A stretch of 64,000 bases of DNA from Promethearchaeota archaeon (GCA_048939995.1 JBHLOY010000002.1:128001-192000), one strand, 5' to 3'; counted from the stretch's first letter, positions 38,719 through 60,093 are shown. A program made the numbers and translations. Notes: generated from the sequence alone by a model not told the origin.

Positions 38719-39927
38719 TTATTTTTGATAGCTATTCCACTTTTCCTCAAGGTTAGGATCTTGAATGGTCTCCATAATATATTTAGCATAATCTTCTCCA
38801 GTAGCACCAGTATCTCTACCTGTAACCTTTAGTTTCTTTTCATAGATTGCACATATATCTAAAGCCATTTCCAGTTTCTTAGCTTTTCCTACGAATCCAA
38901 TATGGTTTAGAAGCATCGCAGCAGCTTTTATAATGCTCGTTGGGTCAGCATATTTGGTTCTTCCAGTTTCAACCATTCGCGGAGCAGTACCATGAATAGC
39001 CTCAAACATAGCATAACGTTTTCCGATATTTGCACTACCCGCTGTACCAACAGAGCCCTGAATCTGAGCTGCTTCGTCCGTAATTATATCTCCATATAGA
39101 TTGGGAGCAACAATTACCTTAAAATCTTTTTGACGTTCAGGATCTATTAATTTAGCAGCCATAATATCAATATACCAGTCATCAAATTTGATTTCAGGAT
39201 ATTCTTCTTTTGCAAGTTGTTTAGCCATATTTAGATACATTCCATCAGTAGTTTTTACTACATTTGCTTTTGTTACTAATGAAACTCTATTTACTCCCGT
39301 CTTTTTAGCATGTTCAAATGCCAATCTCAAAATACGATCGGTACCTTGCAATGTATGCACACAGAAATCAAAAGCTAGATCATTTGTCACCTTAATTCCC
39401 TTTGAACCTAGAACATAAGCACCTTCAGTGTTCTCTCTGAAAAACATCCAGTCAATTCCTTTATCAGGTACCTTTACTGGGCGCACATTAGCAAATAAAT
39501 CAAGTTCTCTTCGCATAGATACATTAGCACTCTCTAAGTTTGGCCATTTGCCAGAAGCTAAGTCCGCTGAGGAAGGTGTGTGCGTGGGCCCTTTGAGTAT
39601 TACATTACAACCCTTCAATTGCTCTAAGGCTTCATCAGGTATGGCTTTCATTACTTTTGCCCTATTCTCAATAGTTAATCCTTCAATATCTTTGAATAGA
39701 ACCTTTCCACTCTGAACCTCATCTTCTAAAAGAAACTTCAGAATTGCTTCAGCATGTTTTGTAATCTCTGGCCCTATACCATCTCCACCTGCTACTCCAA
39801 TAATAATTGGTTTTAGTGTTGAGTAATCAATCCAATCTGCCCCTTTTTTCATTTCTTCAATTCGTTTTAATTGTGCTTTAACTAATGTTTCAAAGTGTTC
39901 TTTTGCTTTTTCAATAACATTTTCCAT
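38719..39927 (-). CDS. icd: Isocitrate/isopropylmalate dehydrogenase family, probably isocitrate dehydrogenase
   Basis: GDGIGPEI, LKGP, RENTEG.Y, TKANVVK, NLYGDIITD, FEAIHGTAP; TCA context. Confidence 0.78.
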   Translation of the reverse strand: MENVIEKAKEHFETLVKAQLKRIEEMKKGADWIDYSTLKPIIIGVAGGDGIGPEITKHAEAILKFLLEDEVQSGKVLFKDIEGLTIENRAKVMKAIPDEALEQLKGCNVILKGPTHTPSSADLASGKWPNLESANVSMRRELDLFANVRPVKVPDKGIDWMFFRENTEGAYVLGSKGIKVTNDLAFDFCVHTLQGTDRILRLAFEHAKKTGVNRVSLVTKANVVKTTDGMYLNMAKQLAKEEYPEIKFDDWYIDIMAAKLIDPERQKDFKVIVAPNLYGDIITDEAAQIQGSVGTAGSANIGKRYAMFEAIHGTAPRMVETGRTKYADPTSIIKAAAMLLNHIGFVGKAKKLEMALDICAIYEKKLKVTGRDTGATGEDYAKYIMETIQDPNLEEKWNSYQK

Positions 39928-40053
39928 TTTATAATTCCTCTATTTTTTTCAATTTTATTGACTTTTTTTTTTAATTTTTAGCATTTCTTAAAATTTATTA
40001 TTTTTATAAACTGAAAAAAGATTTAATTTAAAAGATAGTGTTTAATACCAGAT

Positions 40054-41889
40054 TTAACTTCCAAATAGTATCTCATCCCAAGGTTGACGATATAATCCTG
40101 CTCGTTGTCTTTTTTGATCAAAAACATGTCCCATCATTCCAATACTTCTGCCTAAAACAAATAGTCCATTTAAAGCTTCACTATAGATCACATCCTCAAT
40201 TTCTTCTGCTGTAAAGTCTAGATTCTCAAGTAAATCAAGGAAGCAAATTCCGATACATCCATCAACATTCAATATCAAATTATTTCTTTTTGCTGTAGTT
40301 AATTTCTCAACGTCTAGTGCAAAGTCAAGGTGAGGATGTTTTTCAAAGTTTTTAAACACAAATTCCTTTAGCAATGAAACTCTTACATCTGGGTTTTGGA
40401 CAGATTTAATTCTATGACCTATTCCGGGAATATTTATTTGTACAACGTTTTTCATATAATCAACGAAGTCATGGGGAGACATTTCTTTTTGTACAGCTTC
40501 CCTTATATATTTTGCAGCATCTGATATTGCTCCTCCAAATCTAGGTCCTATAGTCAAGATCCCACTTGCAACTGCAGACATAAGATCCTTGCCAGCTCGA
40601 GCAGTAATGATCGCATTATGCGCTCCAGAAACTGCTGGTCCGTGATCTGCAGTAAGCTTTATTACAATTTCAATAAATTGTTGTGCGAATTCAGGTAATT
40701 CTCTCTTAAACCATAAGAGTCCTATAACATATCCGATAGATTTATTCTCTTCAATAATTTTATCAAGTCCAACGCCAGCAAAAGTTGGAACATCACCACG
40801 ATCATCTGAGATCGTCACTACTACATCTGAGGATCGTCTTACTAGACCCATTCTCACAGCTTCATTATAATCCATAGGTACTTTGGGAGGTTCTATTTCT
40901 TTTATAATTTCTATTTTTCCTGATTGTTTTAACTTCTCAAAAGTTTCCTTTATTAGCTTATCAAAATCTTCATATGATTCTGGAACAAGAGCTCCCGCTT
41001 TTTTGAGTGCTTGATTTTTAGCTTCAGCAGTTTCTTTATCACTGCCCGCCATAGCGCCTGCGTGGCCAAACTGGAGCCCTTTCGGGAGTATTTTAGCCGC
41101 AGTACCGGTCACCCATATTACAAGCGGTTTCTTTATCTTTCCGCTCTCTAATGCATCAACAATCTCATATTCTTCTGTCCCTCCAATTTCACCTAAACAA
41201 ATTAGCATTTTTATTTTCGGATTTGTTTCATAGCGTAGAAGATGATCAATTAATCGTGAGCCTGGATATCTATCACCTCCGATTGCAATTGATTCATAAA
41301 CACCGTCTGTGTTTTGAGCAATCATAAAATTCATTTCATTACTTAATCCACCAGATTTGGATACAAATCCAACTGAACCTGGGCGATATAACTTTGATAG
41401 AATAATATTCTCCAGTGTTCCTGCTGTATTTCCAATTTTAAATGCTCCTGCTTTAATTCCACCAACAGTTGCTGGACCGATAATCACTTTATTTCGCTCT
41501 TTTGCTAATTTAATCAACAAGCGACTTTGTCTCTCTGGTACGCCTTCAGCTATTATTGTTACGACTCGAATGGTATTTGATTCAAGTGCTTCTTTACTAG
41601 TTTCGTAAGCAGATCGAAAGGAAGCAAAATTTATCATAACATCTACATTAGGATGTTTTTTAATTGCCATATTAAGAGTTTTATATACTGGAATAACAAC
41701 TTCTTTGCTACCCCAAAATGCTTTATGATATGCGACTGCAGCTTCTTGAGTAGGTCGAATCATCGCAGCAACCGAGGGTTTTTTTCGTCTACATACATAA
41801 TCAAAATCTAACATCCTTTGGACTGGAGCTGCTTGAAGTCCATATATTATTGCTTGAGTTTCTTCATTAAATAACTCATAATCTTCCAT
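40054..41889 (-). CDS. aclA: ATP citrate lyase large (alpha) subunit
   Basis: QRMLDFDY, NFASFRSA, IGPATVGG, SKSGGLSNE, QFGHAGA phospho-His, DHGPAVSGAHN, IPGIGHRIKS, NLILNVDG. Confidence 0.93.
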   Translation of the reverse strand: MEDYELFNEETQAIIYGLQAAPVQRMLDFDYVCRRKKPSVAAMIRPTQEAAVAYHKAFWGSKEVVIPVYKTLNMAIKKHPNVDVMINFASFRSAYETSKEALESNTIRVVTIIAEGVPERQSRLLIKLAKERNKVIIGPATVGGIKAGAFKIGNTAGTLENIILSKLYRPGSVGFVSKSGGLSNEMNFMIAQNTDGVYESIAIGGDRYPGSRLIDHLLRYETNPKIKMLICLGEIGGTEEYEIVDALESGKIKKPLVIWVTGTAAKILPKGLQFGHAGAMAGSDKETAEAKNQALKKAGALVPESYEDFDKLIKETFEKLKQSGKIEIIKEIEPPKVPMDYNEAVRMGLVRRSSDVVVTISDDRGDVPTFAGVGLDKIIEENKSIGYVIGLLWFKRELPEFAQQFIEIVIKLTADHGPAVSGAHNAIITARAGKDLMSAVASGILTIGPRFGGAISDAAKYIREAVQKEMSPHDFVDYMKNVVQINIPGIGHRIKSVQNPDVRVSLLKEFVFKNFEKHPHLDFALDVEKLTTAKRNNLILNVDGCIGICFLDLLENLDFTAEEIEDVIYSEALNGLFVLGRSIGMMGHVFDQKRQRAGLYRQPWDEILFGS

Positions 41890-43178
41890 TATTTTTCACC
41901 CTTTATTTTTTCAATCATTCGAGATACAGGACGAGTCATACTACTATAGCGATCATAAATTTCAATTGGAATTCCAGTTTCTTCTCCTACCTGCCTCATT
42001 AACTCTAATCCCTGTTTTTCATTTGGACCTCCTCTCCTTACAAGAATCTTTACATTTGCTTTCTTTAGTTTGTCAACAGATTTCTTTATAGCATTTACAA
42101 TTCCCCCAAAAGTTGCTTTTACATCGGTAAAATTTGCAATTCCTCCACCAATAATCAAAAATTTATCTCCTTTTGGATTCGGATGTTCTGTAATAAGATC
42201 AATCAATGTTTGAGCATATATTTCAGTATGTTCCTGAGATGGATTTCCTGAATATTCTCCATAATTCCCCAATTCTTTCGAAAAACCGAGATCTGCAATA
42301 GTATCTGTATAAATAACTGAGGCTCCTCCACCAGCTACCATGGTCCATACATTGCCCTCTCTATTTAGAATTGTAAGCTTAAGGGAGGCTCCAGTTTTTT
42401 CATCCAATTCTTTTATTTTATTTTCTTCTGGACTCATCACCTGCCCGAATCCTGCGGGAAACTCAATAGGATTGCTTGGATTACCCCATGTATCAGTATG
42501 AAGAAATGCAGCAGTGTCATCTAACCGCGCTTTTACATCAAGTGGAACGACTTTATTGTCATGAGTAACTGCGAAAGGATTTATTTCTAAGAAAGTAAAA
42601 TCTTGATCTACAAATACTTGATACAAACCTTTAAAGAATGGAATTAAAACATCTTTTAAGTCTCCCAAATTGGGTAATTTCCTTTCTAAATCGAAGGAAG
42701 AGATATCGGTACCAATAGGGATGTGAATATGGGAAACCTTGTCCCAATTTTCCTCAATAAAAATACCCCCTTCAAAGCTAAAATGGATTATATCTCCTTC
42801 TCTATCAGAGGTTATTGATACATAATATTCCTTCTCATGTGGGATAAATGGTTCAATTAATAAACGTTTTAATGCTCCTCGTACATTGCCAATTTCACAA
42901 ACTCTATCTAAATTGTTATAACAGAAGTCCTTCATTTCATCACAATTTGCATCTAATAAGATTAAATTAGCTTTTCCTCGCTTCCCAAATAATTGGTCTG
43001 GTTTTGCTACAACTTTTTCTGTATTTAACCATGGATTTTCAGAAATAACTTTATCTATATCTGTGTCGCAATCGATTATAACCAATTTATTATGATAGTT
43101 AAATTCTGGATAAAACTTTGGCAGCTGAGTTGTTAGAAGTTTTTTAGCATCATATTCATAAATATTCTTTTGAGCCAA
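41889..43178 (-). CDS. aclB: ATP citrate lyase small (beta) subunit
   Basis: KPDQLFGKRGK, LEINP, GASLKLT, MVAGGGASVIY, NYGEYSG, GGGIANFTDV, VRRGGPN. Confidence 0.93.
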   Translation of the reverse strand: MAQKNIYEYDAKKLLTTQLPKFYPEFNYHNKLVIIDCDTDIDKVISENPWLNTEKVVAKPDQLFGKRGKANLILLDANCDEMKDFCYNNLDRVCEIGNVRGALKRLLIEPFIPHEKEYYVSITSDREGDIIHFSFEGGIFIEENWDKVSHIHIPIGTDISSFDLERKLPNLGDLKDVLIPFFKGLYQVFVDQDFTFLEINPFAVTHDNKVVPLDVKARLDDTAAFLHTDTWGNPSNPIEFPAGFGQVMSPEENKIKELDEKTGASLKLTILNREGNVWTMVAGGGASVIYTDTIADLGFSKELGNYGEYSGNPSQEHTEIYAQTLIDLITEHPNPKGDKFLIIGGGIANFTDVKATFGGIVNAIKKSVDKLKKANVKILVRRGGPNEKQGLELMRQVGEETGIPIEIYDRYSSMTRPVSRMIEKIKGEK

Positions 43179-43243
43179 TTTCTTTATTCTCCTAAATTTT
43201 AAGCAATATTTTATAAAATATACTAATATGTGTAGAGTAAGTT

Positions 43244-43305: not shown

Positions 43306-43411
43306 GTAAAACTCGTTTAAAATTTTAAAGATTTTAACAAAAAGAAAATGAAAACTGGCTCGAAATAATAAATTTATTTATAAGATTGTATGTCTAATGT
43401 TAATGAGATAC

Positions 43412-44020
43412 TCACTTTCTTACAATATAATCTATTATACAAGTACGTTCGGTATTAAAGTACTTTCCTTTTAAAACATGTTTTTTTTCCTTATAAAGGA
43501 TCTCAAAATTATCAAAAAACATATCGGGTTCATCATCATCATAATAACTATGCAAATATTCTTCGTTTCCATGTTTACTAATTATTTCACCAGAATTAGA
43601 TTCTTCATTTTCGTTGAACCAAATATCATCTTTTGAAAGAAAGTTGAGATAACATAAGCCTCCTTTAGTTAATACACGGCATATCTCATTAATAGCTTGA
43701 TTTGTGTCATTTTTGCTTAAGTGGACCATAGAAAGGTAAGAATATACGTAACCAAAGAAATTAGAGTCAAAAGGTATATTCCTCATATCTCCTTTAATTA
43801 TATTTAACTTTATATCATTCACTTTGCAAAAATCTTCTGTTTTCTTTATCTCTTCCTCAGAGATATCAATACCATATGTTTCAAAACCATTTTCATAGAA
43901 AAAAGCAAGCTTAGGACTGGAACCCCCAGCACCACAATCCAATATTCTTTTGACAACTGGATTTAACTGAATAAATCTTAGAAAAACGTATAACGAAGTT
44001 GGATAGAATTTTTTAATCAT
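43412..44020 (-). CDS. Class I SAM-dependent methyltransferase
   Basis: ILDCGAGG, GIDIS, GDMRNIPF, RVLTKGG. Confidence 0.88.
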   Translation of the reverse strand: MIKKFYPTSLYVFLRFIQLNPVVKRILDCGAGGSSPKLAFFYENGFETYGIDISEEEIKKTEDFCKVNDIKLNIIKGDMRNIPFDSNFFGYVYSYLSMVHLSKNDTNQAINEICRVLTKGGLCYLNFLSKDDIWFNENEESNSGEIISKHGNEEYLHSYYDDDEPDMFFDNFEILYKEKKHVLKGKYFNTERTCIIDYIVRK

Positions 44021-44042: not shown

Positions 44043-44903
44043 TTATAAAATTTCTTTAATTAAATGAGGAATATCCCAAGGAGTATCCGCAACATAAACT
44101 CCAGCGTTCTTTAAGGCTTTATTTTTTCCCTCCGCAGTCCCAAAATCACCAGAAATAATAGCGCCCGCATGACCCATTCTTTTTCCCTCAGGAGCGTTCT
44201 TTCCAGCAATATATGCTATAATAGGTTTATTTACGCTACTCTTTATGTAGTCTGCAGTTTTTTCTTCTTCATCACTTCCTATTTCTCCAATTAAAACAAT
44301 TAGTTTTGTATTTTCATCTTCAACATAATATTCAACAGCTTCTTTCATAGTTGTACCTCTAACTGGATCTCCCCCAATACCAATGTAGGCTGATACTCCA
44401 ATGCCCTGATCTCCGATAAATTTTGTTATTTCATATGAAAGAGTTCCACTTTTGGATATTATAGCAACATCTCCAAATTTACATATATCATCGGGCATAA
44501 TACCTAGTTTAATTTTTTCTGGTATTAACATTCCTGGACAATTAGGGCCAATCACGTGTAAATTTCGCTTATTTGCTATTTCTACTATTCGAAGCATATC
44601 AAAAACTGGCACATTTTCAGTTATAATTGTAGTACTTTTTATTCCTGCCAAGAGGCTTTCTTTAACAGCTCCAAATGCGAATCTAGCAGGTACAAATACG
44701 ATACTTGTATCACATCCAGTAATTTCTTTTGCCTCCTTGACTTTATCAAATACAGGAACACCTAATACTTCTTGCCCCCCTTTTCCTGGAGTTACTCCAG
44801 CAACGATATTAGTACCATACTTTAACATCAATTCAGTATGAAAATTTCCTTGATATCCTGTTATTCCTTGTACAAGAACTCTTGAATTTTCGTTAATATA
44901 CAT
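44043..44903 (-). CDS. sucD: Succinyl-CoA synthetase alpha subunit
   Basis: VQGITG, GVTPGKGG, IGPNCPG, SKSGTL, GIGGDP, MGHAGA. Confidence 0.95.
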   Translation of the reverse strand: MYINENSRVLVQGITGYQGNFHTELMLKYGTNIVAGVTPGKGGQEVLGVPVFDKVKEAKEITGCDTSIVFVPARFAFGAVKESLLAGIKSTTIITENVPVFDMLRIVEIANKRNLHVIGPNCPGMLIPEKIKLGIMPDDICKFGDVAIISKSGTLSYEITKFIGDQGIGVSAYIGIGGDPVRGTTMKEAVEYYVEDENTKLIVLIGEIGSDEEEKTADYIKSSVNKPIIAYIAGKNAPEGKRMGHAGAIISGDFGTAEGKNKALKNAGVYVADTPWDIPHLIKEIL

Positions 44904-44906: not shown

Positions 44907-46028
44907 TTATTTCAAAACCTCCTTAACCTTATTTACAGCTTCCAATACATCTTGATATGCATTAATTCCTTTACTTTTGAGGATTGAGATTCCTTCTTTA
45001 TCTTTTGTACCAGTTAATCTAATAACCATTGGAGGAGTGTTTTGAAAATCATTTAAAGCTTGGATTATTGCTTCAGCAACAATATCACATCTCGTAATAC
45101 CACCAAAAATGTTAATTAGAATTGCTTTCGGTTCTAATTTGAATAATAGCTCTAAAGCCTTATACACTCGTTCCTTACTAGCTCCACCCCCTACATCTAA
45201 AAAATTTGCGGGCTTTAAATCCTTATTAGCTAAGAGATCTAAAAGAGCCATTGTTAAACCTGCTCCATTAGCCAATATTCCAATATCTCCTTCTAATTCC
45301 ACAAATGAAAATCCTGCTTTCTTTGCATCGTATTCTAATATTGAAAGCTTCTTTTCTTGTAACTCTCTTATGATGGGTTGCCGAAAAGCTGCATCATCAT
45401 CCAAGATCATTTTACCATCAACTGCAATTAATCCAGTGGAAGTTAAAACTAGTGGGTTTATCTCTACTAATTGTGCTTCCAATTCAGTGGTTATTTTCCA
45501 TAAACGAAGAAAAATCTCTTTAATTGAATCTAGAAGAGAATCCCTAAATCCTAACATTTTCCCCATATTTAAAGCCAATTCTGGGGTCAAACCGACATTA
45601 ATAGAGAAACCTTCCTTGATAATTGCATCTGGATTATTCTTGGACACCTCTTCAATATCAATACCCCCTTCCTTACTAGCTATTGCGAAAAATTGTTTCC
45701 CTGATGCATCCAATGCTATAGAGATATAATATTCATTTTGAATGTTTACTAACTCTTCAATTAAAACTGCTTCTACATTAAATCCATTAACTTTCTTTTC
45801 CAAAAAATCTGAAACCAAATTGAAAGCTTCATCTTTTGATTTAGCAACCTTAATCAAACCAGCCTTCTTTCGACTACCAATCGCTATTTGTGCTTTAATT
45901 ATTGCGGGAAAGTTAAAACGGTTGACTTTTTCTTTTATATTGTCTTCCTTTAAGATAACAATACGTTCTGCTAAAGGAATCTTAAATTTTTCGAAAATAT
46001 TCTTACTTTCAAATTCTAATAAACGTAT
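44907..46028 (-). CDS. sucC: Succinyl-CoA synthetase beta subunit (ATA start)
   Basis: Frame extends upstream of 45857 to ATA-CGT-TTA-TTA-GAA (xRLLEFESK..., KAQI..GSRKKAG); EINPL, NGAGLTM, ANFLDVGGG, NIFGGITRC. Confidence 0.92.
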   Translation of the reverse strand: MRLLEFESKNIFEKFKIPLAERIVILKEDNIKEKVNRFNFPAIIKAQIAIGSRKKAGLIKVAKSKDEAFNLVSDFLEKKVNGFNVEAVLIEELVNIQNEYYISIALDASGKQFFAIASKEGGIDIEEVSKNNPDAIIKEGFSINVGLTPELALNMGKMLGFRDSLLDSIKEIFLRLWKITTELEAQLVEINPLVLTSTGLIAVDGKMILDDDAAFRQPIIRELQEKKLSILEYDAKKAGFSFVELEGDIGILANGAGLTMALLDLLANKDLKPANFLDVGGGASKERVYKALELLFKLEPKAILINIFGGITRCDIVAEAIIQALNDFQNTPPMVIRLTGTKDKEGISILKSKGINAYQDVLEAVNKVKEVLK

Positions 46029-46226
46029 TTTTGATCAACTGTTAGATATCACTTACAATCTAATCATCATTTACGTCCATTTCCTAATAAAACTATTTCT
46101 AATAATCTATAAAATAGAATTAATTCCTTCAAAAATCCTTATAATCTATAAAAAAAGGCTTTTTATCTCTCTGATTACCTAGTTAATATATCTAAATTTA
46201 CTGATTTTTGGTAAAATTATTTTATT

Positions 46227-47960
46227 ATGCAATCAGAACTCAATAAACAAGATATTTCGATTGTTTTATGTGGAGCTGCAGGACAAGGAATTCAAACTGT
46301 AGAAGAATTACTGACAAAAACCCTAAATAGGTCTGGTTATTATGTATTTGCTACTAGAGAATATATGTCTAGGGTGCGGGGTGGAGTAAATTCGACGGCG
46401 ATTCGGGTATCTGATAAACCTGTCAGAGCTTTCGTTGAAAGAATTGACATTTTATTCCCTTTAACTGATCAGGCAGTTCCTCATCTTAAAGAGCGAATTA
46501 AAGCTAATACGATCATTATAGGAGAGAAAAGATTTGTTAATACTATGCCCGAATTAGGTGGTAATCGAATAGAAGTTCCATTTTTAGATATTTCAAACGA
46601 AATTGGAGGAAAAATCTATGCTAATATCATTGCTCTGGGAGCTCTTTTAAATATTTTGAATGCAGATAAATTAGAACTAGAAACACTAATAACAAAAAAC
46701 TTCCAACAAAAAGGACAAAATATTGTAGAAAATAATAAAAAAGCGGTAAATAAAGGTTATGAAATTGCTGATGAGCTTTTAAAGAAAGGCTCTCTTAATC
46801 TTAATATCGCTATTAGTAAAGATAATAATATAATAAACGACTACATCCTTGATGGAACTAAGGCTATAGGGTTAGGTGCAATTCGAGGAGGAGTTAATTA
46901 TGCATGTTTTTATCCAATGGCTCCTTCTACGGGAATTGGTACTTTCTTGGCTCAACATGCTTTAGAATTTGGAATGATCATCGATCAGTCTGAAGATGAA
47001 TTAAGTGTAATTAACAAAGTTTTGGGTGCGTCTTATGTGGGAGCAAGAGCATTTGTATCTACCGCTGGTGGGGGCTTTTCTCTAATGTCAGAAGGTGTAA
47101 GTTTAGCTGGTATGGCAGAATTACCAATTGTAATTGTAGTAGGGCAAAGACCTGGACCTGCTACGGGAATGCCAACACGCACTTGTCAAGAAGATATAGA
47201 ATTAGTGTTATATGCTGGTGCGGGATATTTTCCAAGAATCATATTTGCTCCCGGAACTATTGAGGATTTGTTCTTACTGACTCAAAAGGCTTTTAATTTA
47301 ACCCAACAATTCCATGTACCTGTGTTCATTTTAACTGATCAGTATATTAACGATTCCTATTATAATATTAAATCTTTAGATTATGATAATTTGGAAAATG
47401 AAAAGTACATAGTTAAATCTGATGAAGATTATGAAAGATATATTTTTACAGAAAATGGAGTATCTCCTCGCAGTGTACCGGGGTATGGAAATGGACTTGT
47501 TGATGCAGATAGCCATACACACGATGACTTTGGAAATATTACAGAAGATCCAATTTTAAGAAATAAAGCTGTCCAGAAGAGACTTAAAAAGCTTGAATCG
47601 ATCAAAAAAGAAATTATAGCTCCAGAATTTTTGGGCAATGTAAATTTCAAATATCTAATAATTAGTTGGGGTAGCAATTATTATTTAATTAAGGAGGCAT
47701 TAGAAATCCTTAATAGAGACGATGTTGGATTCCTACATTTTAAACAAATTTGCCCCGTGCATCCAAGTACATTGGATTATCTTATTAAAGCAGAAAAGAA
47801 AATCTCAATTGAACAAAATCCCACAGGTCAGTTTGCAAAACTCCTTGAAAATGAATTTCATATAAACATGAATCATCAGATAACAAAATATAGTGGTTAT
47901 GTTTTTTCTATTGAAGAGATTGTAAGAGAATTAAGAAAATATATTGAGAGTGATGTATAG
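46227..47960 (+). CDS. korA: 2-oxoacid:ferredoxin oxidoreductase alpha subunit (gamma-alpha fused, KorA type)
   Basis: [49 protein letters not shown]. Confidence 0.9.
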
Positions 47961-48817
47961 TGTCCAATAGTGAATATGAATTGGATATAGAAATTCATTG
48001 GTGCCCTGGATGTGGAAACTATATTGCTTTACGTATATTAAAGGAGACTTTAATAGAATTAAACTTAAAACCTCAAGATTTGGTAATTGTGTCTGGTATT
48101 GGTCAGGCTGGTAAATTCCCACATTTTATGAAGTCTCAAAGCTTTAATGGATTGCACGGAAGATATTTATCAAATGCATTAGGAATTAAGGCGGCTAATC
48201 CCAGTTTGACTGTAATTGCAATAAGCGGGGACGGTTGTACATATAGTGAAGGAGGAAACCATTTTATTCATACCATCAGATATAACCCTGATATTGTAAA
48301 CATCGTGCATAATAATCAAGTTTACGGTTTAACAAAAGGTCAAGCGTCACCCACTAGTTTGCTAGGATTTAGGACAAAAGTGCAAGTTTTTGGGGTTATT
48401 AATGAACCTTTTAATCCACTAGCTGTAGCTATTTCACTAAATGCGTCATTTGTAGCCAGAGCATTTGTTGGAGATATAGAAAAGGCGAAAGAAATCTATA
48501 AAAAAGCAATTGAACATAAGGGATATGCCCTAATTGATTTATTATGTCCTTGTGTTACCTTCAATCATGTAAATACTTTTCAATGGTACAAAGAAAACAG
48601 CTATTACATCGATGAGGCCCACGATCCATATGATCAAAATAAAGCAATGAATTTAGCTTTAGATTCAAAAAAACTTGCATTAGGAGTGCTTTATATTAGT
48701 CCTAATAAACGTCCCTATGAAGAAAATGTTCAAATCTATAAACAAGATAAACGTCCCCTATACCAAAGAGAATTAGATATTTCTAAATTTAAAAAGTTAA
48801 TAGAATCTTTTCGTTAG
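47960..48817 (+). CDS. korB: 2-oxoacid:ferredoxin oxidoreductase beta subunit
   Basis: [44 protein letters not shown]. Confidence 0.92.
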
Positions 48818-50554: not shown

Positions 50555-51315
50555 TGAGTGAAGAGAAAACATTTTTAGTATATCGGAATTCAGGAAAAGG
50601 AGATATTCGTTATGAACGATACACTGTTCCTGTATTTAAAGGAATGAGTGTTTTAGAAGCGCTTTTTTATATCCAAGATTACTATGATTCTACTCTAGCT
50701 TTTCGATATGCTTGTAGAGGGGCAATATGTGGTTCATGTGGAATGACAATAGATAAGATCCCATTATTGGCATGTAGGAGTCAAATATCTACATTAAAAT
50801 CATATAAAAAACCCATCAATTTACCGCATTTCGATTTTGGAACTAATTTAAACTGGGATAGTGAGAATGAGATTTTGGTTGAGCCTTTACCTAATATGAT
50901 TATAATAAAAGACTTAGTAGTGGATATGGATACCTTCTGGAATTTTTATAAAGAAGTCGAACCTTACTTTTCAAGAGAATGGAATGATATTGCTTCAGAA
51001 TCAAAGCAATCTCCAAAAGATATGAAAATCATTGAGCGATATGTTTATTGCATTTTATGTGGACTTTGTTGGGCTTGTCCTGTAAATAAGAAAAATAAAA
51101 ATTACTTAGGACCTGCTCAACTAGCAAAAGCAAATCGATTTATTGAAGATACAAGATTAACAGAAGATAGAAGAAAAAGAATCACATTACGAATCTCTAA
51201 GGATGATGCTGTACCTGCTTGTGAACAATATTTCGTCTGCAATAGGGTTTGTCCTAAACAAGTTATGCCAGGAACAGCAATAAAAGAATTAAGGGATAAC
51301 TGGATTAAAAAATAA
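50554..51315 (+). CDS. sdhB: Fumarate reductase / succinate dehydrogenase Fe-S subunit
   Basis: CRGAICGSC...LAC; KDLVVD; CILCGLC..CP; C.....C...CP. Confidence 0.92.
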   Translation: MSEEKTFLVYRNSGKGDIRYERYTVPVFKGMSVLEALFYIQDYYDSTLAFRYACRGAICGSCGMTIDKIPLLACRSQISTLKSYKKPINLPHFDFGTNLNWDSENEILVEPLPNMIIIKDLVVDMDTFWNFYKEVEPYFSREWNDIASESKQSPKDMKIIERYVYCILCGLCWACPVNKKNKNYLGPAQLAKANRFIEDTRLTEDRRKRITLRISKDDAVPACEQYFVCNRVCPKQVMPGTAIKELRDNWIKK

Positions 51316-51457: not shown

Positions 51458-52843
51458 TTGGATTTTAGAATTGAAAAAGATGTCCTAGGAGAAATTCAAG
51501 TCCCAGCTAACGTTTATTGGGGTATTAACACACAACGAGCAATTCAAAACTTTCAAATTAGCGGAAAGAATCTTCCTTCAACATTTATTTTATCCCTAGC
51601 GAATGTGAAAAAGGCATGTTTAATGGCGAATTTAGAATTAAAATTAATAGACCAACAGAAAGCAGATGCAATCCTCAAATCTTTAGATGAAATATTGAAT
51701 GAAAAGAAATATTTAGATCAATTCCCAATAGATGTATTCCAAACTGGGAGTGGGACCCAAACTAATATGAATATGAATGAAGTGGTTGCAAACAGGGCTA
51801 ATGAAATTTTAGGGCATCCTTTAGGTAAAAAATCTCCAGTACATCCAAATGATGATGTTAATAAATGCCAATCATCTAATGACGTCATTCCCTCTGCGAT
51901 GCATCTCTCTACAATTCATCTGATTCGAGAGAAGCTAATTCCATCCCTAAAAAATCTAAAGAACAATTTAGATTTAAAGATTAAGCAGTTTAAAGACATC
52001 ATAAAGGTAGGAAGAACTCATCTCCAAGATGCTGTTCCAATCCCTTTATCGTTAGAATTTGAAGTATATAGGAAGCAAATTGAAATTAGTCTTCAAAGAG
52101 TAAATAACATACTAGAAGAATTACTTTTTATTCCCATAGGAGGTACCGTAATTGGAACTGGTTTAAATTCTCATGATAAATTCTCAGATTTAGCTGTACA
52201 ACATCTTTCTAAAATTACAGGTTATCACTTCAAGAGTAATTTAGTTAAAGCTGAAGGAATTGCCTCACATAATACTATTACTGCTATGAGTAGTGTAATT
52301 CGATCTTTAGCATTATCATTACTAAAGATGGCTAATGATATAAGATGGATGGGTAGTGGACCACGAGCAGGTCTTTCAGAGTTAATTCTTCCTCGGAATG
52401 AACCAGGTTCTTCTATTATGCCAGGCAAAGTTAATCCGACTCAATCAGAAGCACTCATTCAGGTGTGCTTGCAAGTAATTGGAAATGACACAACAATCAC
52501 ATATGCGGAGGGTTATGGAAGTATCTTAGATTTAAATGTTTGTAAGCCTTTAATGATTTCTAATTTAATTGAGTCCATAAATCTACTTAGTAATGCGATT
52601 AATTCATTTATCAGCCTTTGTCTTAATAAAATTGAAGCAAACAAAAATCAAATAAATTCCAATTTAGAGAGGATGCTTATGGTAGTTACTAAGCTTACAC
52701 CAATTTTAGGATATGACCAATGCTCTGCAATCGCGATGAAAGCATATAAAGAAGGTAAAACAATAAAAGAAACAATCAGAGAGATGGGTATTAAAGTTGA
52801 AGGAGATTTAGATGAATTATTAGATCCAAAAAAAATGGTTTAG
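51458..52843 (+). CDS. fumC: Class II fumarate hydratase
   Basis: QTGSGTQTNMN, HPNDDVN, QSSND, GRTHLQDA, GSSIMPGKVNPTQ. Confidence 0.93.
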   Translation: MDFRIEKDVLGEIQVPANVYWGINTQRAIQNFQISGKNLPSTFILSLANVKKACLMANLELKLIDQQKADAILKSLDEILNEKKYLDQFPIDVFQTGSGTQTNMNMNEVVANRANEILGHPLGKKSPVHPNDDVNKCQSSNDVIPSAMHLSTIHLIREKLIPSLKNLKNNLDLKIKQFKDIIKVGRTHLQDAVPIPLSLEFEVYRKQIEISLQRVNNILEELLFIPIGGTVIGTGLNSHDKFSDLAVQHLSKITGYHFKSNLVKAEGIASHNTITAMSSVIRSLALSLLKMANDIRWMGSGPRAGLSELILPRNEPGSSIMPGKVNPTQSEALIQVCLQVIGNDTTITYAEGYGSILDLNVCKPLMISNLIESINLLSNAINSFISLCLNKIEANKNQINSNLERMLMVVTKLTPILGYDQCSAIAMKAYKEGKTIKETIREMGIKVEGDLDELLDPKKMV

Positions 52844-52860: not shown

Positions 52861-53913
52861 TTGAAAAAAAATATGACTTTAGAAGACATTAGAGAAGCTG
52901 CTAGGAAAAAATTAATGGGATTCTGTGCAGTCTATAAGATTTGTGATGGAGATTCAACTAGAATATGCCAAGGTCAAAGTTATGGGCGACCATTGAATTT
53001 TGGAGGAATTGGAAGTGGTGTGAGCTTCCATAATAATGTTACTGCTTTTAAAAAATACAGATTGAAAATGAGTTTAATTGGTGAACATTTTGAACCGGAT
53101 ACCTCCTATAATTTCTTTGGAAAACTACTAAGTATGCCAATAATGGGAGCTAGTGTCGCAGGTGTAAACAGTTTCGGAGGTGATAATGTAATCACCGAAA
53201 AAGAATTTTGTAGATCGGTGATTCTTGGATGCAAAGAAGCTAAGACAGTTGGTTGGAGAGGTGATACCTATACCTATTCTCTTGAAAATTCTTATGGTCT
53301 TGATGCTATTGCTGAAGCTAAAGGATGGGGAATTAAAATTGTAAAACCAAGAGACCAAGATATTATAAAGCAATTCTATAGAAAGGCTGAAAGTATTAGG
53401 TGTATAGCAGTAGGTATTGATATTGATGGATGTGGTTCTTATGCTATGTCAACTCATAATCAACCAGTTTACAGAAAAAGCATTGAAGAATTAAAAGAAC
53501 TTGTTGCATCAACTAAATTACCAGTAATAATTAAGGGTATAATGTGTGTTGAGGATGCAGAAGCTGCAATTGAAACTGGTGCTGCTGGGATAGTAGTTTC
53601 AAATCATGGAGGGAGAGTCTTAGATCATACTCCGGGAACCATCGATGTTCTTCCCGAAATTTCTTCAATAGTTAGAGGAAAAATAAAAATTTTTGCTGAT
53701 GGTGGAATAAGAACGGGATATGATGTACTAAAGATGTTAGCATTAGGAGCAGAAGCAGTTTTAATAGGAAGAGATATAGTACGAGCTGCTGTTGGGGGAG
53801 GAATTGAAGGGGTCTATATACATATGGATTATCTCCAAAAAACACTTGCTAAAGCAATGAAAATGACAAATTGTAGGAATCTCTCAGAAATTAGTCCTAA
53901 TATATTGCAATAA
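52861..53913 (+). CDS. FMN-dependent alpha-hydroxy-acid dehydrogenase with N-terminal Cys cluster
   Basis: IKGIM, VSNHGGRVLD, DGGIRTG.DVLK.LALGA..VLIGR; N-terminal C.....CDG....C. Confidence 0.85.
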   Translation: MKKNMTLEDIREAARKKLMGFCAVYKICDGDSTRICQGQSYGRPLNFGGIGSGVSFHNNVTAFKKYRLKMSLIGEHFEPDTSYNFFGKLLSMPIMGASVAGVNSFGGDNVITEKEFCRSVILGCKEAKTVGWRGDTYTYSLENSYGLDAIAEAKGWGIKIVKPRDQDIIKQFYRKAESIRCIAVGIDIDGCGSYAMSTHNQPVYRKSIEELKELVASTKLPVIIKGIMCVEDAEAAIETGAAGIVVSNHGGRVLDHTPGTIDVLPEISSIVRGKIKIFADGGIRTGYDVLKMLALGAEAVLIGRDIVRAAVGGGIEGVYIHMDYLQKTLAKAMKMTNCRNLSEISPNILQ

Positions 53914-54008
53914 TGCAATTAAAGATTCTCTATGAATATTAAAATGGAATTATAACTAAATTAACTTCTGGAAACAAATTCCTTTATAAATAATTAATTA
54001 AAAGCCAT

Positions 54009-54089
54009 GGTAAATTATATTATCGGGGATATTCTCTTGAGGATTTAGTAGAAAAATCTTCATTTGAAGAAGTAGCTTATTTATTATAG
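54009..54089 (+). pseudogene. gltA: Citrate synthase N-terminal remnant
   Basis: Translates [26 protein letters not shown], the conserved G-x-L-x-YRGY...FEEVAYLL motif; no start codon or remainder. Confidence 0.85.
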
Positions 54090-54156
54090 TCTTATTGATA
54101 TTGAATATTATCGAAATGGTGGGATTCTAAATACAGTTCTACGTAATATGTTATAA
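54088..54156 (+). pseudogene. acnA: Aconitase A C-terminal remnant
   Basis: Translates SLIDIEYYRNGGILNTVLRNML*, matching the AcnA/IRP terminus E-x-x-YY-x-x-GGIL-x-x-VLR. Confidence 0.8.
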
Positions 54157-54294
54157 AGTGAAGTTTTTCTAATCATTTTAGATTATCTATTCTAGATAGA
54201 ACTTCCAAACGAAGTATTTCATATGAATGAATCTAAAATGAATTCAACTAGCAGTCAAAATGCTAATAGAATGAGAGGTAAAAATCTCAGTTAT

Positions 54295-54441
54295 TTATAT
54301 ATTTTCGTACTTATCTTTTGAAGCCTTACCTATGGAGTCTTTAGCTCCGCACTTTTCGCAAAATTCTCTTTTTGTGTGAGTAAATTCCCCACATTCAGAA
54401 CATATGAATGGGTATGTTTTCCTAAATAATTTTTTATTCAT
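54295..54441 (-). CDS. Small Zn-ribbon/rubredoxin-like protein (48 aa, not in ORF track)
   Basis: FICSECGEF...FCEKCGA; GAGG SD. Confidence 0.65.
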   Translation of the reverse strand: MNKKLFRKTYPFICSECGEFTHTKREFCEKCGAKDSIGKASKDKYENI

Positions 54442-54521
54442 AATATATATTCCCTCTTGGTATCATTTTTCATAAAATTTTAATTTTTTTATTATAGTTT
54501 ATAATTCTTAATTTGAACAAA

Positions 54522-55577
54522 TTAATTTTTAATAACATCTGGTGGGAGGTGAATCTCGACCTGACAAAAATTATCTCCTTTTAGAAGTGATTTTAACACC
54601 TTTATTTTTACTGGTTTCTCTATTATTCCTTCCCATTGCTGACGGTACCATCCAGTTCCACAATTACAAAAAGTTGGAGAGATACCTTTATCTAAATTCT
54701 CATTAATGAATGAACAATGACAATAATTTTTCCTTTTTTCTTCAGGAGTTTTAGCTTTATCATATTCTTCTTGGTTTACGGGAACTTTCGACACATATAA
54801 CTTATTGCCTTTTCTTATTGGTTTTTCATACCATGCATTATCTTTATGCATTTCCTTTATAACAGCGTCAATATCTCCTGTTCTCTGATATATTTCTTTC
54901 ATATAAGAGATTCGTTTTCGTGAGAAATCATGTGCACATCGAGATACGATTTCATATTTTTGATCATCATCAGTAACTTGATCTAATCGATTGAGCATTT
55001 CTTTTAGCCATTGGATTCGATCGTTATAAGAAGATTCAATTGTGAATAATTTATCTCTATCTTTCATGATTTCATTTCTTGCTTTTTTTCCTAAGATTTG
55101 GTCAATACTTCTTTCTAATCTTTTATCCCATCTGTGCAAGTTATGTTGAATCTCTATCTTATTTTCTTCAGGATTATCTAAATTATATTTATGATACACA
55201 AGTCTTAGCCATGCTGTACCTAAAACTACATGTTCTTGTCTATATCTCTGAATTTTTTGAAAACTTTCTTTTAAGGTGTCATTTGGGCCATTATGCATGA
55301 TTGATAAGACTTCCACACCATCAAGGTATTTAGTATTTAAATCTTTGAAGTTTTTTCCTTCTTGAATTGGAATGCAAACATCAATATCTTTTCCGCTTTC
55401 TGAATAAACTCCGTAATCTATCACCGCTATTGCTGGGCTGGTAGTATTTTGCTTTATCTTTTCGGCTAACTCATTTATTTTAGCTGGAATATCTGAAATT
55501 TCTCCTCGAAAATTTATAAAACTTACAAATTGTTTGTCAATTACCTTATACTCAATCCCTAAATCTTTTAATGTCAT
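54522..55577 (-). CDS. GyrI-like effector-binding domain fused to a Cys-rich (DUF6144-like) domain
   Basis: DIDVCIPI, IMHNGP in the N-half; CAH, YCHC, FCNCGTGW and SLLKGDNFC in the C-half. Confidence 0.7.
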   Translation of the reverse strand: MTLKDLGIEYKVIDKQFVSFINFRGEISDIPAKINELAEKIKQNTTSPAIAVIDYGVYSESGKDIDVCIPIQEGKNFKDLNTKYLDGVEVLSIMHNGPNDTLKESFQKIQRYRQEHVVLGTAWLRLVYHKYNLDNPEENKIEIQHNLHRWDKRLERSIDQILGKKARNEIMKDRDKLFTIESSYNDRIQWLKEMLNRLDQVTDDDQKYEIVSRCAHDFSRKRISYMKEIYQRTGDIDAVIKEMHKDNAWYEKPIRKGNKLYVSKVPVNQEEYDKAKTPEEKRKNYCHCSFINENLDKGISPTFCNCGTGWYRQQWEGIIEKPVKIKVLKSLLKGDNFCQVEIHLPPDVIKN

Positions 55578-55747
55578 TATAATTTTGCTTAACTAACTAA
55601 TCATTTAAAAGCAAATATCAGTGATATTTAAAAAAAGTTTTTACATATATCGTGTATTAGAAAATTAATCTCTTTCTTGAAAAAAAAGAGAAATAAAATA
55701 CTTTTAAAACAAAAGAATTTATAAAAAACTAAACGTGAAAAAAAATA

Positions 55748-57310: not shown

Positions 57311-57347
57311 AATTTTAAAATTAAATCTTTCTTTCATTTCTTTTTAA

Positions 57348-58085
57348 TTAAATTTTTCCATAATAGATCTCAGTATCATATTCAATTCTTATCAATCCAT
57401 TTCGCTGGTATTTCTTAAAAAGATTTTCAAAGTCACTAATCATCCTTTTGTAATTTGGGTCATCTTCCAAAGGGATATATGAAGCTGAGAGTATTCTTCC
57501 TTTATATTCTTCAAGATTAACGTCTTGGAAATTATAAAATATTTTTTTTTCAAATTGAAAAAATCTTTCAATATTTTTCTCAGTTTTTTGTACTTCTTTA
57601 TAGTCTTTACCATATTTTAAGAGTAGCTGTTCGCTTTCACTGGGAAATCCTGGTGCTGTCTTTCTTCGGTTATTCCATATTAAAACGACGTAACCCATAG
57701 GTTTTATAATTCTTATAAATTCCTTTTTAGTTTTTTTGACATCAAACCAATGAAAAGCTTGACCTGCTGTAATTAAGTCAATAGAATTTTCTTTTAACCC
57801 AGTATTTTCAGCTGAACCTTCAACACTATTAAAGTTTGCATAATTGCTTAATAATTTTTCAGCAGCAGCCCTCATATCTTTATTTGGCTCAACACCATAA
57901 ACTAAATTACCATTTTTTAAAAATAATTCACTTAAAATTCCAGTACCTGAGCCAATATCTGCTACGATAGAATCACTTAAGAGAAGCTCTTTTTCAATTA
58001 GAAAATTAATTACTTCCCAAGGATATTTTGGGCGATATTTAATATAATTTTCCACTCTAGAAGAGAAGCGCTCTTTAGGGTCCAT
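57348..58085 (-). CDS. Class I SAM-dependent methyltransferase
   Basis: Y.KYRP.YP, ADIGSGTG, VEPN..M, GQAFHWFD; start moved to ATG 58085. Confidence 0.9.
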   Translation of the reverse strand: MDPKERFSSRVENYIKYRPKYPWEVINFLIEKELLLSDSIVADIGSGTGILSELFLKNGNLVYGVEPNKDMRAAAEKLLSNYANFNSVEGSAENTGLKENSIDLITAGQAFHWFDVKKTKKEFIRIIKPMGYVVLIWNNRRKTAPGFPSESEQLLLKYGKDYKEVQKTEKNIERFFQFEKKIFYNFQDVNLEEYKGRILSASYIPLEDDPNYKRMISDFENLFKKYQRNGLIRIEYDTEIYYGKI

Positions 58086-58164
58086 ATAAAATTTTATTTT
58101 ACCTATAATTCTCACTTCATCCAATTGGTAGAATTAAAAAAATAAAGATAAAAATATTTCTTAT

Positions 58165-60093
58165 TTATTTAGCATGTCTTTGTTTTATTAAGGTTAACTT
58201 TCCACCAGCTTTTAATTCTTCTAAATCAGTTTTACTGAGTGAATGAATTAATTCGGTTTCAAAACCCTTTGTTAAGTTCTTTAATCTTACTTTACCAGTA
58301 TCTAGTGTAGTTAAATCAATTTCGAATTTATCTCCTTGTTCCATCTTATTATAATCATCCTTATTTACAAAAGTTAAAGGTACAATCCCAAAATTTACAA
58401 GATTTGCTAAATGGATACGAGCAAACGATTTTACAATCACTGCTTTAACCCCTAAATACTTAGGGGCAATTGCAGCGTGTTCACGACTAGATCCTTGGCC
58501 ATAATTCTCCCCAGCAATAACAAAACCTCCATTCTTTTGTTTGGCTCTCTCTGGAAAGGATTGGTCAACTAATTTAAACACAAATTTGCTTATTTCAGGA
58601 ATATTACTACGTAAGGGAAGTATCTGAGCCCCTGCTGGCATAATATGATCAGTTGTGATGTCATCCTCGACTTTTAAGAGAACTTCACCTTCCAATATAT
58701 CTGGGATGGGATTAAATTCTGGCAAAGGTTTTATATTTGGACCACGTATAATCTCAACACCCTCTGCCTTTTCTGGGGGTAACGGAGCTATTATCATATT
58801 ATCATTTACTAAAAATTTTTCTGGCATCTCAATCATAGGCATCGTTCCAAATTTTCGAGGATCAGTGACTTGACCTTCAATCGCAGCCATCGCAGCTACT
58901 TCTGGACTTACAAGATATACATTAGCACTTTTTGTACCTGATCTTCCTAAAAAATTTCTATTGAATGTTCTTAATGAAACAGCGTCACTTTTCGGTGCTA
59001 GTCCCATACCAATACAAGGTCCACATGTATTCTCAAGAATTCTAGCCCCGGCTTCAACAAAATATGCCATTTCTCCAGAATGAATTAAATGATCGACGAC
59101 TTGTCGTGATCCTGGAGACACAGTAAGGCTTATATTTTGATGAACAGTCTTACCTTTTAACATATTTGCGGCAACTTTAAGATCTCGTAAGGAACTATTT
59201 GTACAAGATCCAATACAAACTTGATCTACTTTTAAGCCTTCAATTTGTTTGATTGATTTAACATTTCCGGGGCTATGAGGCTCTGCTACAAGGGGTTCAA
59301 GCGTACTTAAATCAATTTCAATTCTCTCATCATAAATTGCATCTACATCGGCTTCTAGGGGAATCCACTGGTCCCCTCTTTCCTGGGCTTCAAGGAATTC
59401 TTTAGTAATATCATCAGAAGGAAAAATTGAAGTGGTTGCGCCTGTTTCAGTTCCCATATTAGTGATTGTTCCCCTTTCTGGAACTGATAAAGTCTTTACT
59501 CCTGGTCCTGAATATTCCAACACTTTATTTACTCCTCCTTTTACCCCAATTCTCCGTAAAACTTCTAAGATAACATCCTTGGCGGACACAAAATCAGAAA
59601 GTTTTCCAGTTAAATGGACATTAACAATTATTGGTAGTTTTAAGTTAAACGGCTCTCCTGCCATTGCAGCTGCAACATCTAAACCACCCGCTCCGATAGC
59701 AATCATTCCTACCCCACCTCCAGTTGGAGTATGGCTATCCGAGCCCAATAATGTTTTACCAGGACGAGCAAATCGTTCAAGGTGAACTTGATGGCATATT
59801 CCATTTCCAGGACGCGATAAATAGATCCCATATTTTGCTGCTATGCTTTGTAGATATCGATGGTCATCAGGATTTTTATAATCCTCTTGAAGGGTGTTGT
59901 GGTCGATATAACTTACAGAAAGCTCAGTTTGAACCCGTGGAATACCCATTGCCTCAAATTGAAGATAAGCCATCGTTCCTGTAGCATCTTGCGTAAGGGT
60001 TTGGTCAATTTTGATTGATATATCTGTTCCTTTTTCTAAGATCCCTTCTACTAAATGTTGTTCTAAAATCTTTTCTGTTAGGGTTTTTCCCAT
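58165..60093 (-). CDS. acn: Aconitate hydratase (short Aquifex/Clostridium type)
   Basis: QDATG, YIDHN, GICHQVH, GSDSHT, IGSCTNSS, CGPCIGMG, FNRNF.GR, TTDHI, YGQGSSREHA. Confidence 0.93.
   Translation of the reverse strand: MGKTLTEKILEQHLVEGILEKGTDISIKIDQTLTQDATGTMAYLQFEAMGIPRVQTELSVSYIDHNTLQEDYKNPDDHRYLQSIAAKYGIYLSRPGNGICHQVHLERFARPGKTLLGSDSHTPTGGGVGMIAIGAGGLDVAAAMAGEPFNLKLPIIVNVHLTGKLSDFVSAKDVILEVLRRIGVKGGVNKVLEYSGPGVKTLSVPERGTITNMGTETGATTSIFPSDDITKEFLEAQERGDQWIPLEADVDAIYDERIEIDLSTLEPLVAEPHSPGNVKSIKQIEGLKVDQVCIGSCTNSSLRDLKVAANMLKGKTVHQNISLTVSPGSRQVVDHLIHSGEMAYFVEAGARILENTCGPCIGMGLAPKSDAVSLRTFNRNFLGRSGTKSANVYLVSPEVAAMAAIEGQVTDPRKFGTMPMIEMPEKFLVNDNMIIAPLPPEKAEGVEIIRGPNIKPLPEFNPIPDILEGEVLLKVEDDITTDHIMPAGAQILPLRSNIPEISKFVFKLVDQSFPERAKQKNGGFVIAGENYGQGSSREHAAIAPKYLGVKAVIVKSFARIHLANLVNFGIVPLTFVNKDDYNKMEQGDKFEIDLTTLDTGKVRLKNLTKGFETELIHSLSKTDLEELKAGGKLTLIKQRHAK

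Follow-up and report, generated by a model that had tools for sequence, protein, structure and literature searches.

A compact citric-acid-cycle gene cluster with ATP-citrate lyase and a citrate-synthase relic in a Lokiarchaeia (Promethearchaeia) Asgard archaeon

A complete tricarboxylic acid (TCA) cycle that includes isocitrate dehydrogenase (ICDH), 2-oxoglutarate:ferredoxin oxidoreductase and ATP-citrate lyase (ACL) was described for the Lokiarchaeia in 2018, and autotrophy by the reductive TCA (rTCA) cycle was inferred from it (Bulzu et al., bioRxiv 10.1101/385732). In the passages of that preprint on the Lokiarchaeia, sdhCD is given as missing and malate dehydrogenase (MDH) as present only in the COG2055 (Ldh_2) type. 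ACL was reported in many Asgard lineages (2022 preprint; Santana-Molina et al. 2025). Here, a gene cluster of this kind is analyzed in a stretch of 64,000 nucleotides from Promethearchaeota archaeon (GCA_048939995.1 JBHLOY010000002.1:128001-192000, referred to as the window), which equals G000:C17:128001-192000 of the source genome (G000), a metagenome-assembled genome (MAG) of 3.75 Mb in 38 contigs that is 98% complete. The window holds a genuine and compact cluster of citric-acid-cycle genes, carried by an Asgard archaeon of the Lokiarchaeia (Promethearchaeia). The cluster is read here, with a probability of roughly 55%, as a network of amino and organic acids that operates reversibly, near equilibrium, in an organism fermenting amino acids, and not as a dedicated autotrophic cycle. 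The ACL-based TCA gene set of these archaea is already known and no new pathway is added to it; what is gained from this window is a relic of a citrate synthase (CS) gene and a quantified module structure.

Genes were called from an open reading frame (ORF) listing combined with Pfam and NCBIfam scans. The cluster consists of two divergent operons, sucC-sucD-methyltransferase-aclB-aclA-icd on the minus strand and korA-korB-sdhA-sdhB-fumC-FMN-dehydrogenase (FMN, flavin mononucleotide) on the plus strand, and of an aconitase gene on the minus strand 4 kb past the plus-strand operon. All gene blocks named in an earlier note on the window were recovered at or near the places where it had put them (Pfam, NCBIfam), and its suggestion of a probable Asgard origin is supported by the nearest named homologues of the FMN enzyme, which come from Promethearchaeia, Promethearchaeota and Lokiarchaeota MAGs. 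The features of the cluster are as follows (SAM, S-adenosylmethionine; OFOR, 2-oxoacid:ferredoxin oxidoreductase).

38719-39927, minus strand: icd, isocitrate dehydrogenase (Iso_dh, 231 bits)
40054-41889, minus strand: aclA, ATP-citrate lyase large subunit (Pfam CoA_binding, Ligase_CoA and the C-terminal part of Citrate_synt)
41889-43178, minus strand: aclB, ATP-citrate lyase small subunit (Citrate_bind, PF16114, 255 bits; Citrate_synth_N, PF24948, 230 bits)
43412-44020, minus strand: class-I SAM methyltransferase within the minus-strand operon (Methyltransf_11/25)
44043-44903, minus strand: sucD, succinyl-CoA synthetase alpha (NF004230, 382 bits, cut-off 336)
44907-46028, minus strand: sucC, succinyl-CoA synthetase beta (NF001913, 320 bits, scored on a truncated ORF)
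46029-46226, no strand: divergent intergenic (promoter) region of 198 bp common to both operons (seen in the sequence)
46227-47960, plus strand: korA, two-subunit OFOR alpha, fused gamma-alpha (TIGR03710, 594 bits, above cut-off)
47960-48817, plus strand: korB, OFOR beta subunit (TIGR02177, 345 bits, above cut-off)
48842-50554, plus strand: sdhA/frdA flavoprotein (TIGR01812, 740 bits, above cut-off)
50554-51315, plus strand: sdhB/frdB iron-sulfur subunit (TIGR00384, 199 bits)
51458-52843, plus strand: fumC, class II fumarase (TIGR00979, 581 bits, cut-off 665)
52861-53913, plus strand: FMN-dependent (S)-2-hydroxy-acid dehydrogenase family protein (FMN_dh, PF01070, 219 bits)
53994-54089, plus strand: citrate-synthase relic (PF00285 match)
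57348-58124, minus strand: SAM methyltransferase 3' of aconitase (Methyltransf_11)
58165-60093/60102, minus strand: aconitase, 645 amino acids, PRK07229 type (NF005558, 987 bits, above cut-off)

A citrate-synthase profile search of the whole genome returned only AclA and a short match with an internal stop at 54003-54089, immediately downstream of the FMN-dehydrogenase gene. The match covers positions 18-47 of PF00285 (E = 4e-7) and lies in a frame (53994-54089) of 31 open codons that ends in TAG and holds the hallmark N-terminal CS motif. Its residues are identical at 24 out of 27 positions to residues 55-81 of the intact CS of the congener G057, and no further CS remnant was found in 53700-54600 past these 27 aligned codons. 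The same slot is filled by an intact CS gene in the same-genus genomes G057, G147, G118, G013 and G031 and in the sister-family genome G062; the plus-strand operon of the relatives reads korAB-sdhAB-...-fumC-FMNdh-CS-aconitase, a gene order that equals the order of the reactions. The position of the relic in this slot shows that CS was deleted in the source lineage, along with the CS-linked aconitase paralogue. The remaining aconitase (58165-60102), the single match in the genome search, is of the type found in the acn-aclB-aclA-icd operons of G054, G105 and G007 and is 64-77% identical to those of G054 and G007. With a relic in the CS slot and no intact CS, ACL is now the sole citrate enzyme of the genome and the only one that links citrate with acetyl-CoA and oxaloacetate. 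The earlier note had proposed rTCA carbon fixation and had named another citrate synthase as an observation that would speak against it; none that is intact was found. The genome shows the loss of CS caught in the act.

Further variation was observed around this slot. Tandem CS gene pairs lie behind fumC-FMNdh in some congeners (L062/L063 in G147, L064 in G118) and in G070, and the aconitase that follows CS in congeners is of two kinds, 50-55% and only 26-28% identical to the source aconitase. G102 and G019 contain short CS fragments, a hint of additional decay events. In the source genome, a 55-codon ORF with two CxxC pairs (zinc-ribbon-like) is located on the minus strand at 54295-54462, inside the gap that the CS deletion left.

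The enzyme retained at the citrate node carries all expected domains: AclB contains the ATP-grasp and citrate-binding domains, and AclA combines the CoA-binding, CoA-ligase and C-terminal citrate-synthase-like (citryl-CoA lyase) domains in one chain (Pfam). Against structures in the PDB, AclA scored 782 bits with ACLY-B of Methanosaeta (Methanothrix) concilii, 728 bits with human ACLY and 435 bits with Chlorobium AclA, and it aligns over its full length with M. concilii 6hxi_B and human ACLY. The domain order is the same as in the two-subunit M. concilii enzyme (6hxi, 6znw) and the fused human ACLY, and so are the catalytic His, Glu and Asp: H276 (the phosphohistidine, in GHAGA), E115 and D543 of AclA align with human H760, E599 and D1026. 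The equivalent of the lyase aspartate D543 is Ala in PDB entry 6znw. The conserved residues predict a catalytically intact ACL that would cleave citrate, and the bit scores suggest an enzyme of the archaeal/eukaryote-like type. Unlike in these comparison enzymes, the Asgard ACL genes of the window sit in a TCA operon. They are joined there by icd, which adjoins aclA in relatives too. Icd scored best with NAD-type isocitrate dehydrogenases among solved structures (176 bits; homoisocitrate dehydrogenase, 139 bits; isopropylmalate dehydrogenase, about 120 bits) and carries the isocitrate-type S-x-N...R motif ('ESANVSMRR'). The idea in the earlier note that this ACL bears on the origin of eukaryotic ACLY holds as far as the type of the enzyme is concerned, but published trees set eukaryotic ACL apart from Asgard ACL (2022 preprint; Santana-Molina et al. 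2025). In published trees, eukaryotic ACLA/B falls with DPANN, ACLY falls with Thermoplasmatota-E3, and neither groups with the Asgard proteins.

The distribution of the module was determined in 151 genomes of the class, using Citrate_bind as the marker for ACL together with full-length CS, the SdhB orthologue, FumC and SucC. ACL was present in 84 out of 151 genomes, full-length CS in about 41, SdhB in 33, FumC in 95 and SucC in 51. ACL and SdhB occur together in 24 genomes, and SdhB is missing from 60 out of the 84 genomes with ACL; many of these 60 are 97-100% complete. Since ACL is found in 84 genomes and SdhB in only 33, most ACL-bearing relatives cannot close a cycle. The conserved unit in G054, G105 and G007 is acn-aclB-aclA-icd, and the distribution shows that the usual role of ACL in the class is in a linear branch between acetyl-CoA plus oxaloacetate, citrate and 2-oxoglutarate, not in a closed cycle. 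The full combination of ACL, SdhB, FumC and SucC occurs in 19 genomes, five of which, the source genome among them, lack CS. Overall, CS is present in 25 out of 33 SdhB-positive genomes; all nine SdhB-positive genomes without ACL have CS, and all eight without CS have ACL. This pattern is suggestive of a citrate node, in the Sdh-containing module, at which CS and ACL can stand in for each other, which would fit a near-equilibrium, reversible operation.

The same pattern bears on an oxidative cycle in which ACL runs in reverse as an ATP-conserving citrate synthase and functionally replaces the lost CS. ACL run backwards in this way is known for Desulfobacter postgatei, and the ACL reaction is close to equilibrium. 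Such a replacement would agree with the relic, which marks a citrate-forming enzyme lost while ACL was kept, and with CS being missing in Sdh-module genomes only where ACL is present. However, no acceptor for the electrons of succinate was identified, and no Sdh membrane anchor was found: no anchor gene follows sdhB, and none of the 26 genomes of the genus, including the source, contains a Sdh_cyt match. The sdhB-fumC gap of relatives was considered as a place for an anchor or a CCG subunit, which was rejected because the gap genes are not conserved; they encode an opposite-strand membrane protein, an Hsp20, a hydrolase and a rubredoxin fusion; the approximately 22 CCG-domain genes of the source genome all lie outside the cluster. 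Complete oxidation of acetyl-CoA is furthermore hard to square with a fermentative or syntrophic life, and this oxidative cycle is regarded as highly unlikely.

The substrate of KorAB has to be judged from the gene context, which suggests that KorAB is a 2-oxoglutarate enzyme; in sequence, KorA is about as similar to the broad-range OFORs of S. tokodaii (240 and 218 bits) as to the Magnetococcus 2-oxoglutarate enzyme 6n2n (214 bits). A second alpha paralogue of the two-subunit type (L007, 552 amino acids, TIGR03710 513 bits) is located about 81 kb past the window (G000:C17:272652-274310), and either of the two paralogues may be the 2-oxoglutarate enzyme. FumC is probably a class II fumarase based on its best score; it also passes the subfamily model of aspartate ammonia-lyase (517, cut-off 510) and, less likely, may be an aspartase.

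The rest of the genome has the gene content of an amino-acid fermenter. It encodes four full-length Glu/Leu/Phe/Val-dehydrogenases (ELFV) and six OFOR alpha subunits, consisting of three PorA-like proteins (pyruvate or 2-oxoisovalerate:ferredoxin oxidoreductase, POR/VOR, below equivalog cut-offs), two of the two-subunit type and one indolepyruvate:ferredoxin oxidoreductase (IOR). Together with an aldehyde:ferredoxin oxidoreductase (AFOR) and the 2-hydroxyacyl-CoA-dehydratase homologues and enoyl-CoA hydratase encoded beside the cluster, these genes are the reason for the assignment as a fermenter. Phosphoenolpyruvate (PEP) synthase and pyruvate phosphate dikinase (PPDK) are both present above cut-offs. 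A genome-wide search gave no match to PF14010, PF00311, PF02436 or PF00390 and thus no archaeal or bacterial PEP carboxylase (PEPC), no pyruvate carboxylase (PYC) or OadA and no malic enzyme; a single GTP-dependent PEP carboxykinase (PEPCK) is the only link found between C3 and C4 compounds. The adjacent genes for the subunits CdhB and CdhC of carbon monoxide dehydrogenase/acetyl-CoA synthase (CODH/ACS) are present. At this locus (L071, G000:C11:296000-312000, positions 6588-8567), no CdhA-sized ORF was seen 5' of the pair, which is separated by about 1.1 kb from the enoyl-CoA hydratase gene before it; the gene for CODH alpha may lie elsewhere or be interrupted. Of the partner enzymes that the earlier note had listed for a genome-wide check, POR-like OFORs, PEPCK and CdhB/CdhC were accordingly found, and PEP carboxylase, an MDH of the LDH/MDH family (LDH, lactate dehydrogenase) and an intact CS were not.

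Four ELFV dehydrogenases and a PEPCK that joins oxaloacetate to PEP are also what a linear catabolic branch would use. Glutamate would be converted to 2-oxoglutarate, which is reductively carboxylated by ICDH and isomerised by aconitase before ACL yields acetyl-CoA and oxaloacetate, and the C4 branch would run reductively to succinate as an electron sink. The acn-aclB-aclA-icd core is conserved in relatives without the rest of the cycle, and an anchor-less SdhAB fits a soluble fumarate reductase. This route costs one ATP at ACL, however, no precedent for it as a fermentation pathway was found in the literature searched, and the same genes are equally suited to glutamate synthesis in the opposite direction. 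The earlier note had named such a conversion of glutamate or 2-oxoglutarate to acetyl-CoA as its alternative to carbon fixation; it is plausible, and is considered quite unlikely as the explanation of the cluster.

An autotrophic rTCA (Arnon-Buchanan) cycle would use ACL to cleave citrate, KorAB to carboxylate succinyl-CoA and SdhAB to reduce fumarate, with acetyl-CoA as the net product entering biosynthesis. This is the reading that was published for the Lokiarchaeia (Bulzu et al., bioRxiv 10.1101/385732, in its Lokiarchaeia passages) and was proposed in the earlier note. The gene set behind it is real: the three marker enzymes are encoded in one cluster with aconitase, ICDH, succinyl-CoA synthetase (SCS) and fumarase, the genome lacks an intact CS, and POR-like OFORs, PEP synthase and PPDK are available. 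Every step of the cycle has a candidate enzyme, and the reductive and the oxidative cycle are both formally possible. Against carbon fixation by this route as the main role stand CODH/ACS, which is already there for C1 assimilation, the lack of any PEPC, PYC or malic enzyme match, and the SdhAB pair, for which neither a membrane anchor nor an electron donor for reducing fumarate was identified. Furthermore, the absence of SdhB from 60 out of 84 ACL-bearing relatives indicates that the full enzyme set does not travel together in the lineage, the sdh-fum operon closes with citrate synthase in relatives, ancestrally so, and the genome is equipped like that of an amino-acid fermenter. An autotrophic cycle is therefore judged unlikely. 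The surprise that the earlier note had attached to an ACL-based rTCA gene set in these archaea is weakened as well, as such a set has been in print for them since 2018 (Bulzu et al., same passages).

The points against an autotrophic cycle and those against complete oxidation of acetyl-CoA together favor the reversible amino-acid and organic-acid network. In this network, the minus-strand operon would supply succinyl-CoA synthetase, two-subunit ACL and isocitrate dehydrogenase, and the plus-strand operon would supply the two-subunit OFOR, an anchor-less SdhAB/FrdAB with a presumed redox partner, fumarase and the FMN enzyme, whose probable reaction is the conversion of malate to oxaloacetate and back. 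The CS that once closed the plus-strand operon has been deleted, leaving ACL at the citrate node. Glutamate/2-oxoglutarate, aspartate/oxaloacetate, fumarate, succinate and acetyl-CoA would be interconverted in an anaerobic, amino-acid-fermenting host that also possesses the Wood-Ljungdahl enzyme CODH/ACS. Several points weigh against this interpretation. Nothing in the DNA fixes the direction of flux, and a complete set with an intact ACL and no CS is just what would be expected of an rTCA organism. The genome also encodes POR-like enzymes, PEP synthase and PPDK, and PEPCK can carboxylate. The genes reported as absent were searched for with Pfam in a MAG that is 98% complete and split into 38 contigs, and the CS-versus-ACL pattern was tallied by genome without a species tree, at about p = 0.05 if the genomes were independent, which, being related, they are not.

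The FMN enzyme encoded behind fumC concerns the malate/oxaloacetate step. Its orthologues (65-83% identity) were found in 50 out of 151 genomes, and the gene lies directly 3' of fumC on the same strand in 46 of these 50, Sdh-less genomes included. The structural model is a TIM barrel (pLDDT 78) that matches 1tb3, 5zzp and 1gox with a Foldseek probability of 1.0, the best matches being hydroxy-acid, mandelate and glycolate oxidases. Like glycolate oxidase, L-lactate oxidase, mandelate oxidase and flavocytochrome b2, the protein combines the TIM barrel with the SNHGGR His-Arg motif, the KGI lysine and DGGIR. It differs from these (S)-2-hydroxy-acid oxidases in the tight linkage of its gene to fumC and in a divergent N-terminal half, of which the first 200 residues gave no sequence alignment with solved members. 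This half contains the cysteines C22-x5-C28-x7-C36, in a stretch that is disordered in the model; confidence is low over most of residues 26-72, the Cys-rich segment. SNHGGR, C22, C28, C36, C117 and C338 are invariant among the orthologues, as are R133, R164 and Y139. In glycolate oxidase, the substrate carboxylate is bound by Tyr24, Tyr129 and Arg164; no obvious counterparts of the family residues Tyr129 and Arg164 were seen. The best guess is that the protein is a candidate NAD-independent malate/oxaloacetate enzyme (malate:acceptor dehydrogenase), because fumarase yields an (S)-2-hydroxy acid, because the position of the gene in the operon fits the reaction order, and because the genome lacks a canonical MDH. 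The single LDH/MDH-family protein (C11:107760-108725) was ruled out as the MDH of the cycle by the LDH-type Gln at position 102 ('GRNQRPNETR') and by its scores, which pass the L-LDH cut-offs and fail the MDH cut-off. Two Ldh_2 (COG2055) genes on another contig are the conventional MDH candidates and rivals to the FMN enzyme. A literature search for an FMN-dependent malate dehydrogenase beside fumarase found no paper. If the assignment is correct, it would affect the annotation of these genomes as 'MDH missing' by automated pipelines. A more specific scenario, in which ACL replaced a recently deleted CS in a complete, anchor-less and reversible TCA module, citrate formation conserves ATP and the malate/oxaloacetate step is carried out by an undescribed FMN and cysteine-cluster enzyme behind fumarase, is put forward only tentatively and is doubtful as a whole.

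The sucC gene appears to start at an unusual codon. Its frame is open for 375 codons but offers no ATG, GTG or TTG for the conserved N-terminus, and the predicted start must be the ATA at 46028-46026 (minus strand). Among 34 orthologues (L074-L103, L054, L055, L061 and L068), the homologous codon is ATT in 19, ATA in 11 and ATC, CTG, TTG or ATG in one each; it usually lies 6-10 nt 3' of a GGAGG-like motif and, in 13 out of 34, one codon past an in-frame stop. A frameshift caused by a sequencing error was considered, as a TTG next to an A5 run is out of frame by a single base, and was rejected because ATT or ATA occupies this codon in 30 out of 34 orthologues. Gene callers would shorten SucC by 57-105 residues, and annotations of these genes as 'sucC truncated' would be affected by an AUU/AUA start. 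A scan of the divergent region (46029-46226) for bacterial-type promoters and terminators showed no enrichment; the model is bacterial and the host archaeal.

Two methyltransferase genes accompany the cluster. The NCBIfam scan gave no specific match for the one inside the minus-strand operon, of which an orthologue is located near aclB in G092. The second (57348-58124, 258 amino acids) forms the same pair with aconitase in G127 (L105, positions 6399-7139), and its orthologue adjoins fumC-FMNdh in G017. A function as trans-aconitate methyltransferase is unsupported, with just a tail match to yeast Tmt1 (E = 6e-4). On the other side of aconitase, the plus-strand region 60348-63315 contains a 163-amino-acid ORF without a family match followed by two HGD-D family genes of the 2-hydroxyacyl-CoA dehydratase, benzoyl-CoA reductase or double-cubane type, and is perhaps another module for fermenting amino or hydroxy acids. 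A nearby Arg operon, proposed in the earlier note as a possible source of glutamate/2-oxoglutarate for the cluster, was not confirmed: just one carbamoyltransferase gene was found (20657-21589), 17 kb away and beside flavoprotein and AFOR genes. The run on the minus strand at 20657-27121 (carbamoyltransferase, DAO-type flavoprotein, a Fer2_4/Pyr_redox_2/BFD protein and a 726-amino-acid aldehyde:ferredoxin oxidoreductase) is more like a dehydrogenase module of the proline/sarcosine type than an operon for arginine biosynthesis.

Asgard metabolism feeds into models of the origin of the eukaryotic cell, and the syntrophy proposed with the mitochondrial ancestor depends on whether Asgard archaea use CO2 fixation, amino-acid fermentation or both. 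Compared with the Arnon-Buchanan rTCA cycle of Chlorobium, Aquificales, Campylobacterota and Nitrospira, the cluster shares ACL, a ferredoxin-dependent 2-oxoacid oxidoreductase, a Sdh/Frd-type enzyme, aconitase, ICDH, SCS and fumarase. It departs from the cycle of these organisms in several respects: its AclA resembles the M. concilii enzyme and human ACLY far more than the Chlorobium protein, searches for PEPC and PYC gave no match, the genome has CODH/ACS as well, and most ACL-bearing relatives are without Sdh. The Lokiarchaeia reconstruction of Bulzu et al., as given in its passages on the TCA cycle, is reproduced here: lineage, gene set, missing sdhCD and Ldh_2-type MDH are the same, and those passages make no mention of the operon layout, the CS relic or the FMN enzyme. 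The published claim is sharpened in that ACL in the Lokiarchaeia is found mostly outside a closed cycle and that CS and ACL look interchangeable in the Sdh-containing module. Autotrophy was deduced in those passages from gene presence, whereas the distribution among relatives, the CS relic and the rest of the genome point here to a reversible heterotrophic network.

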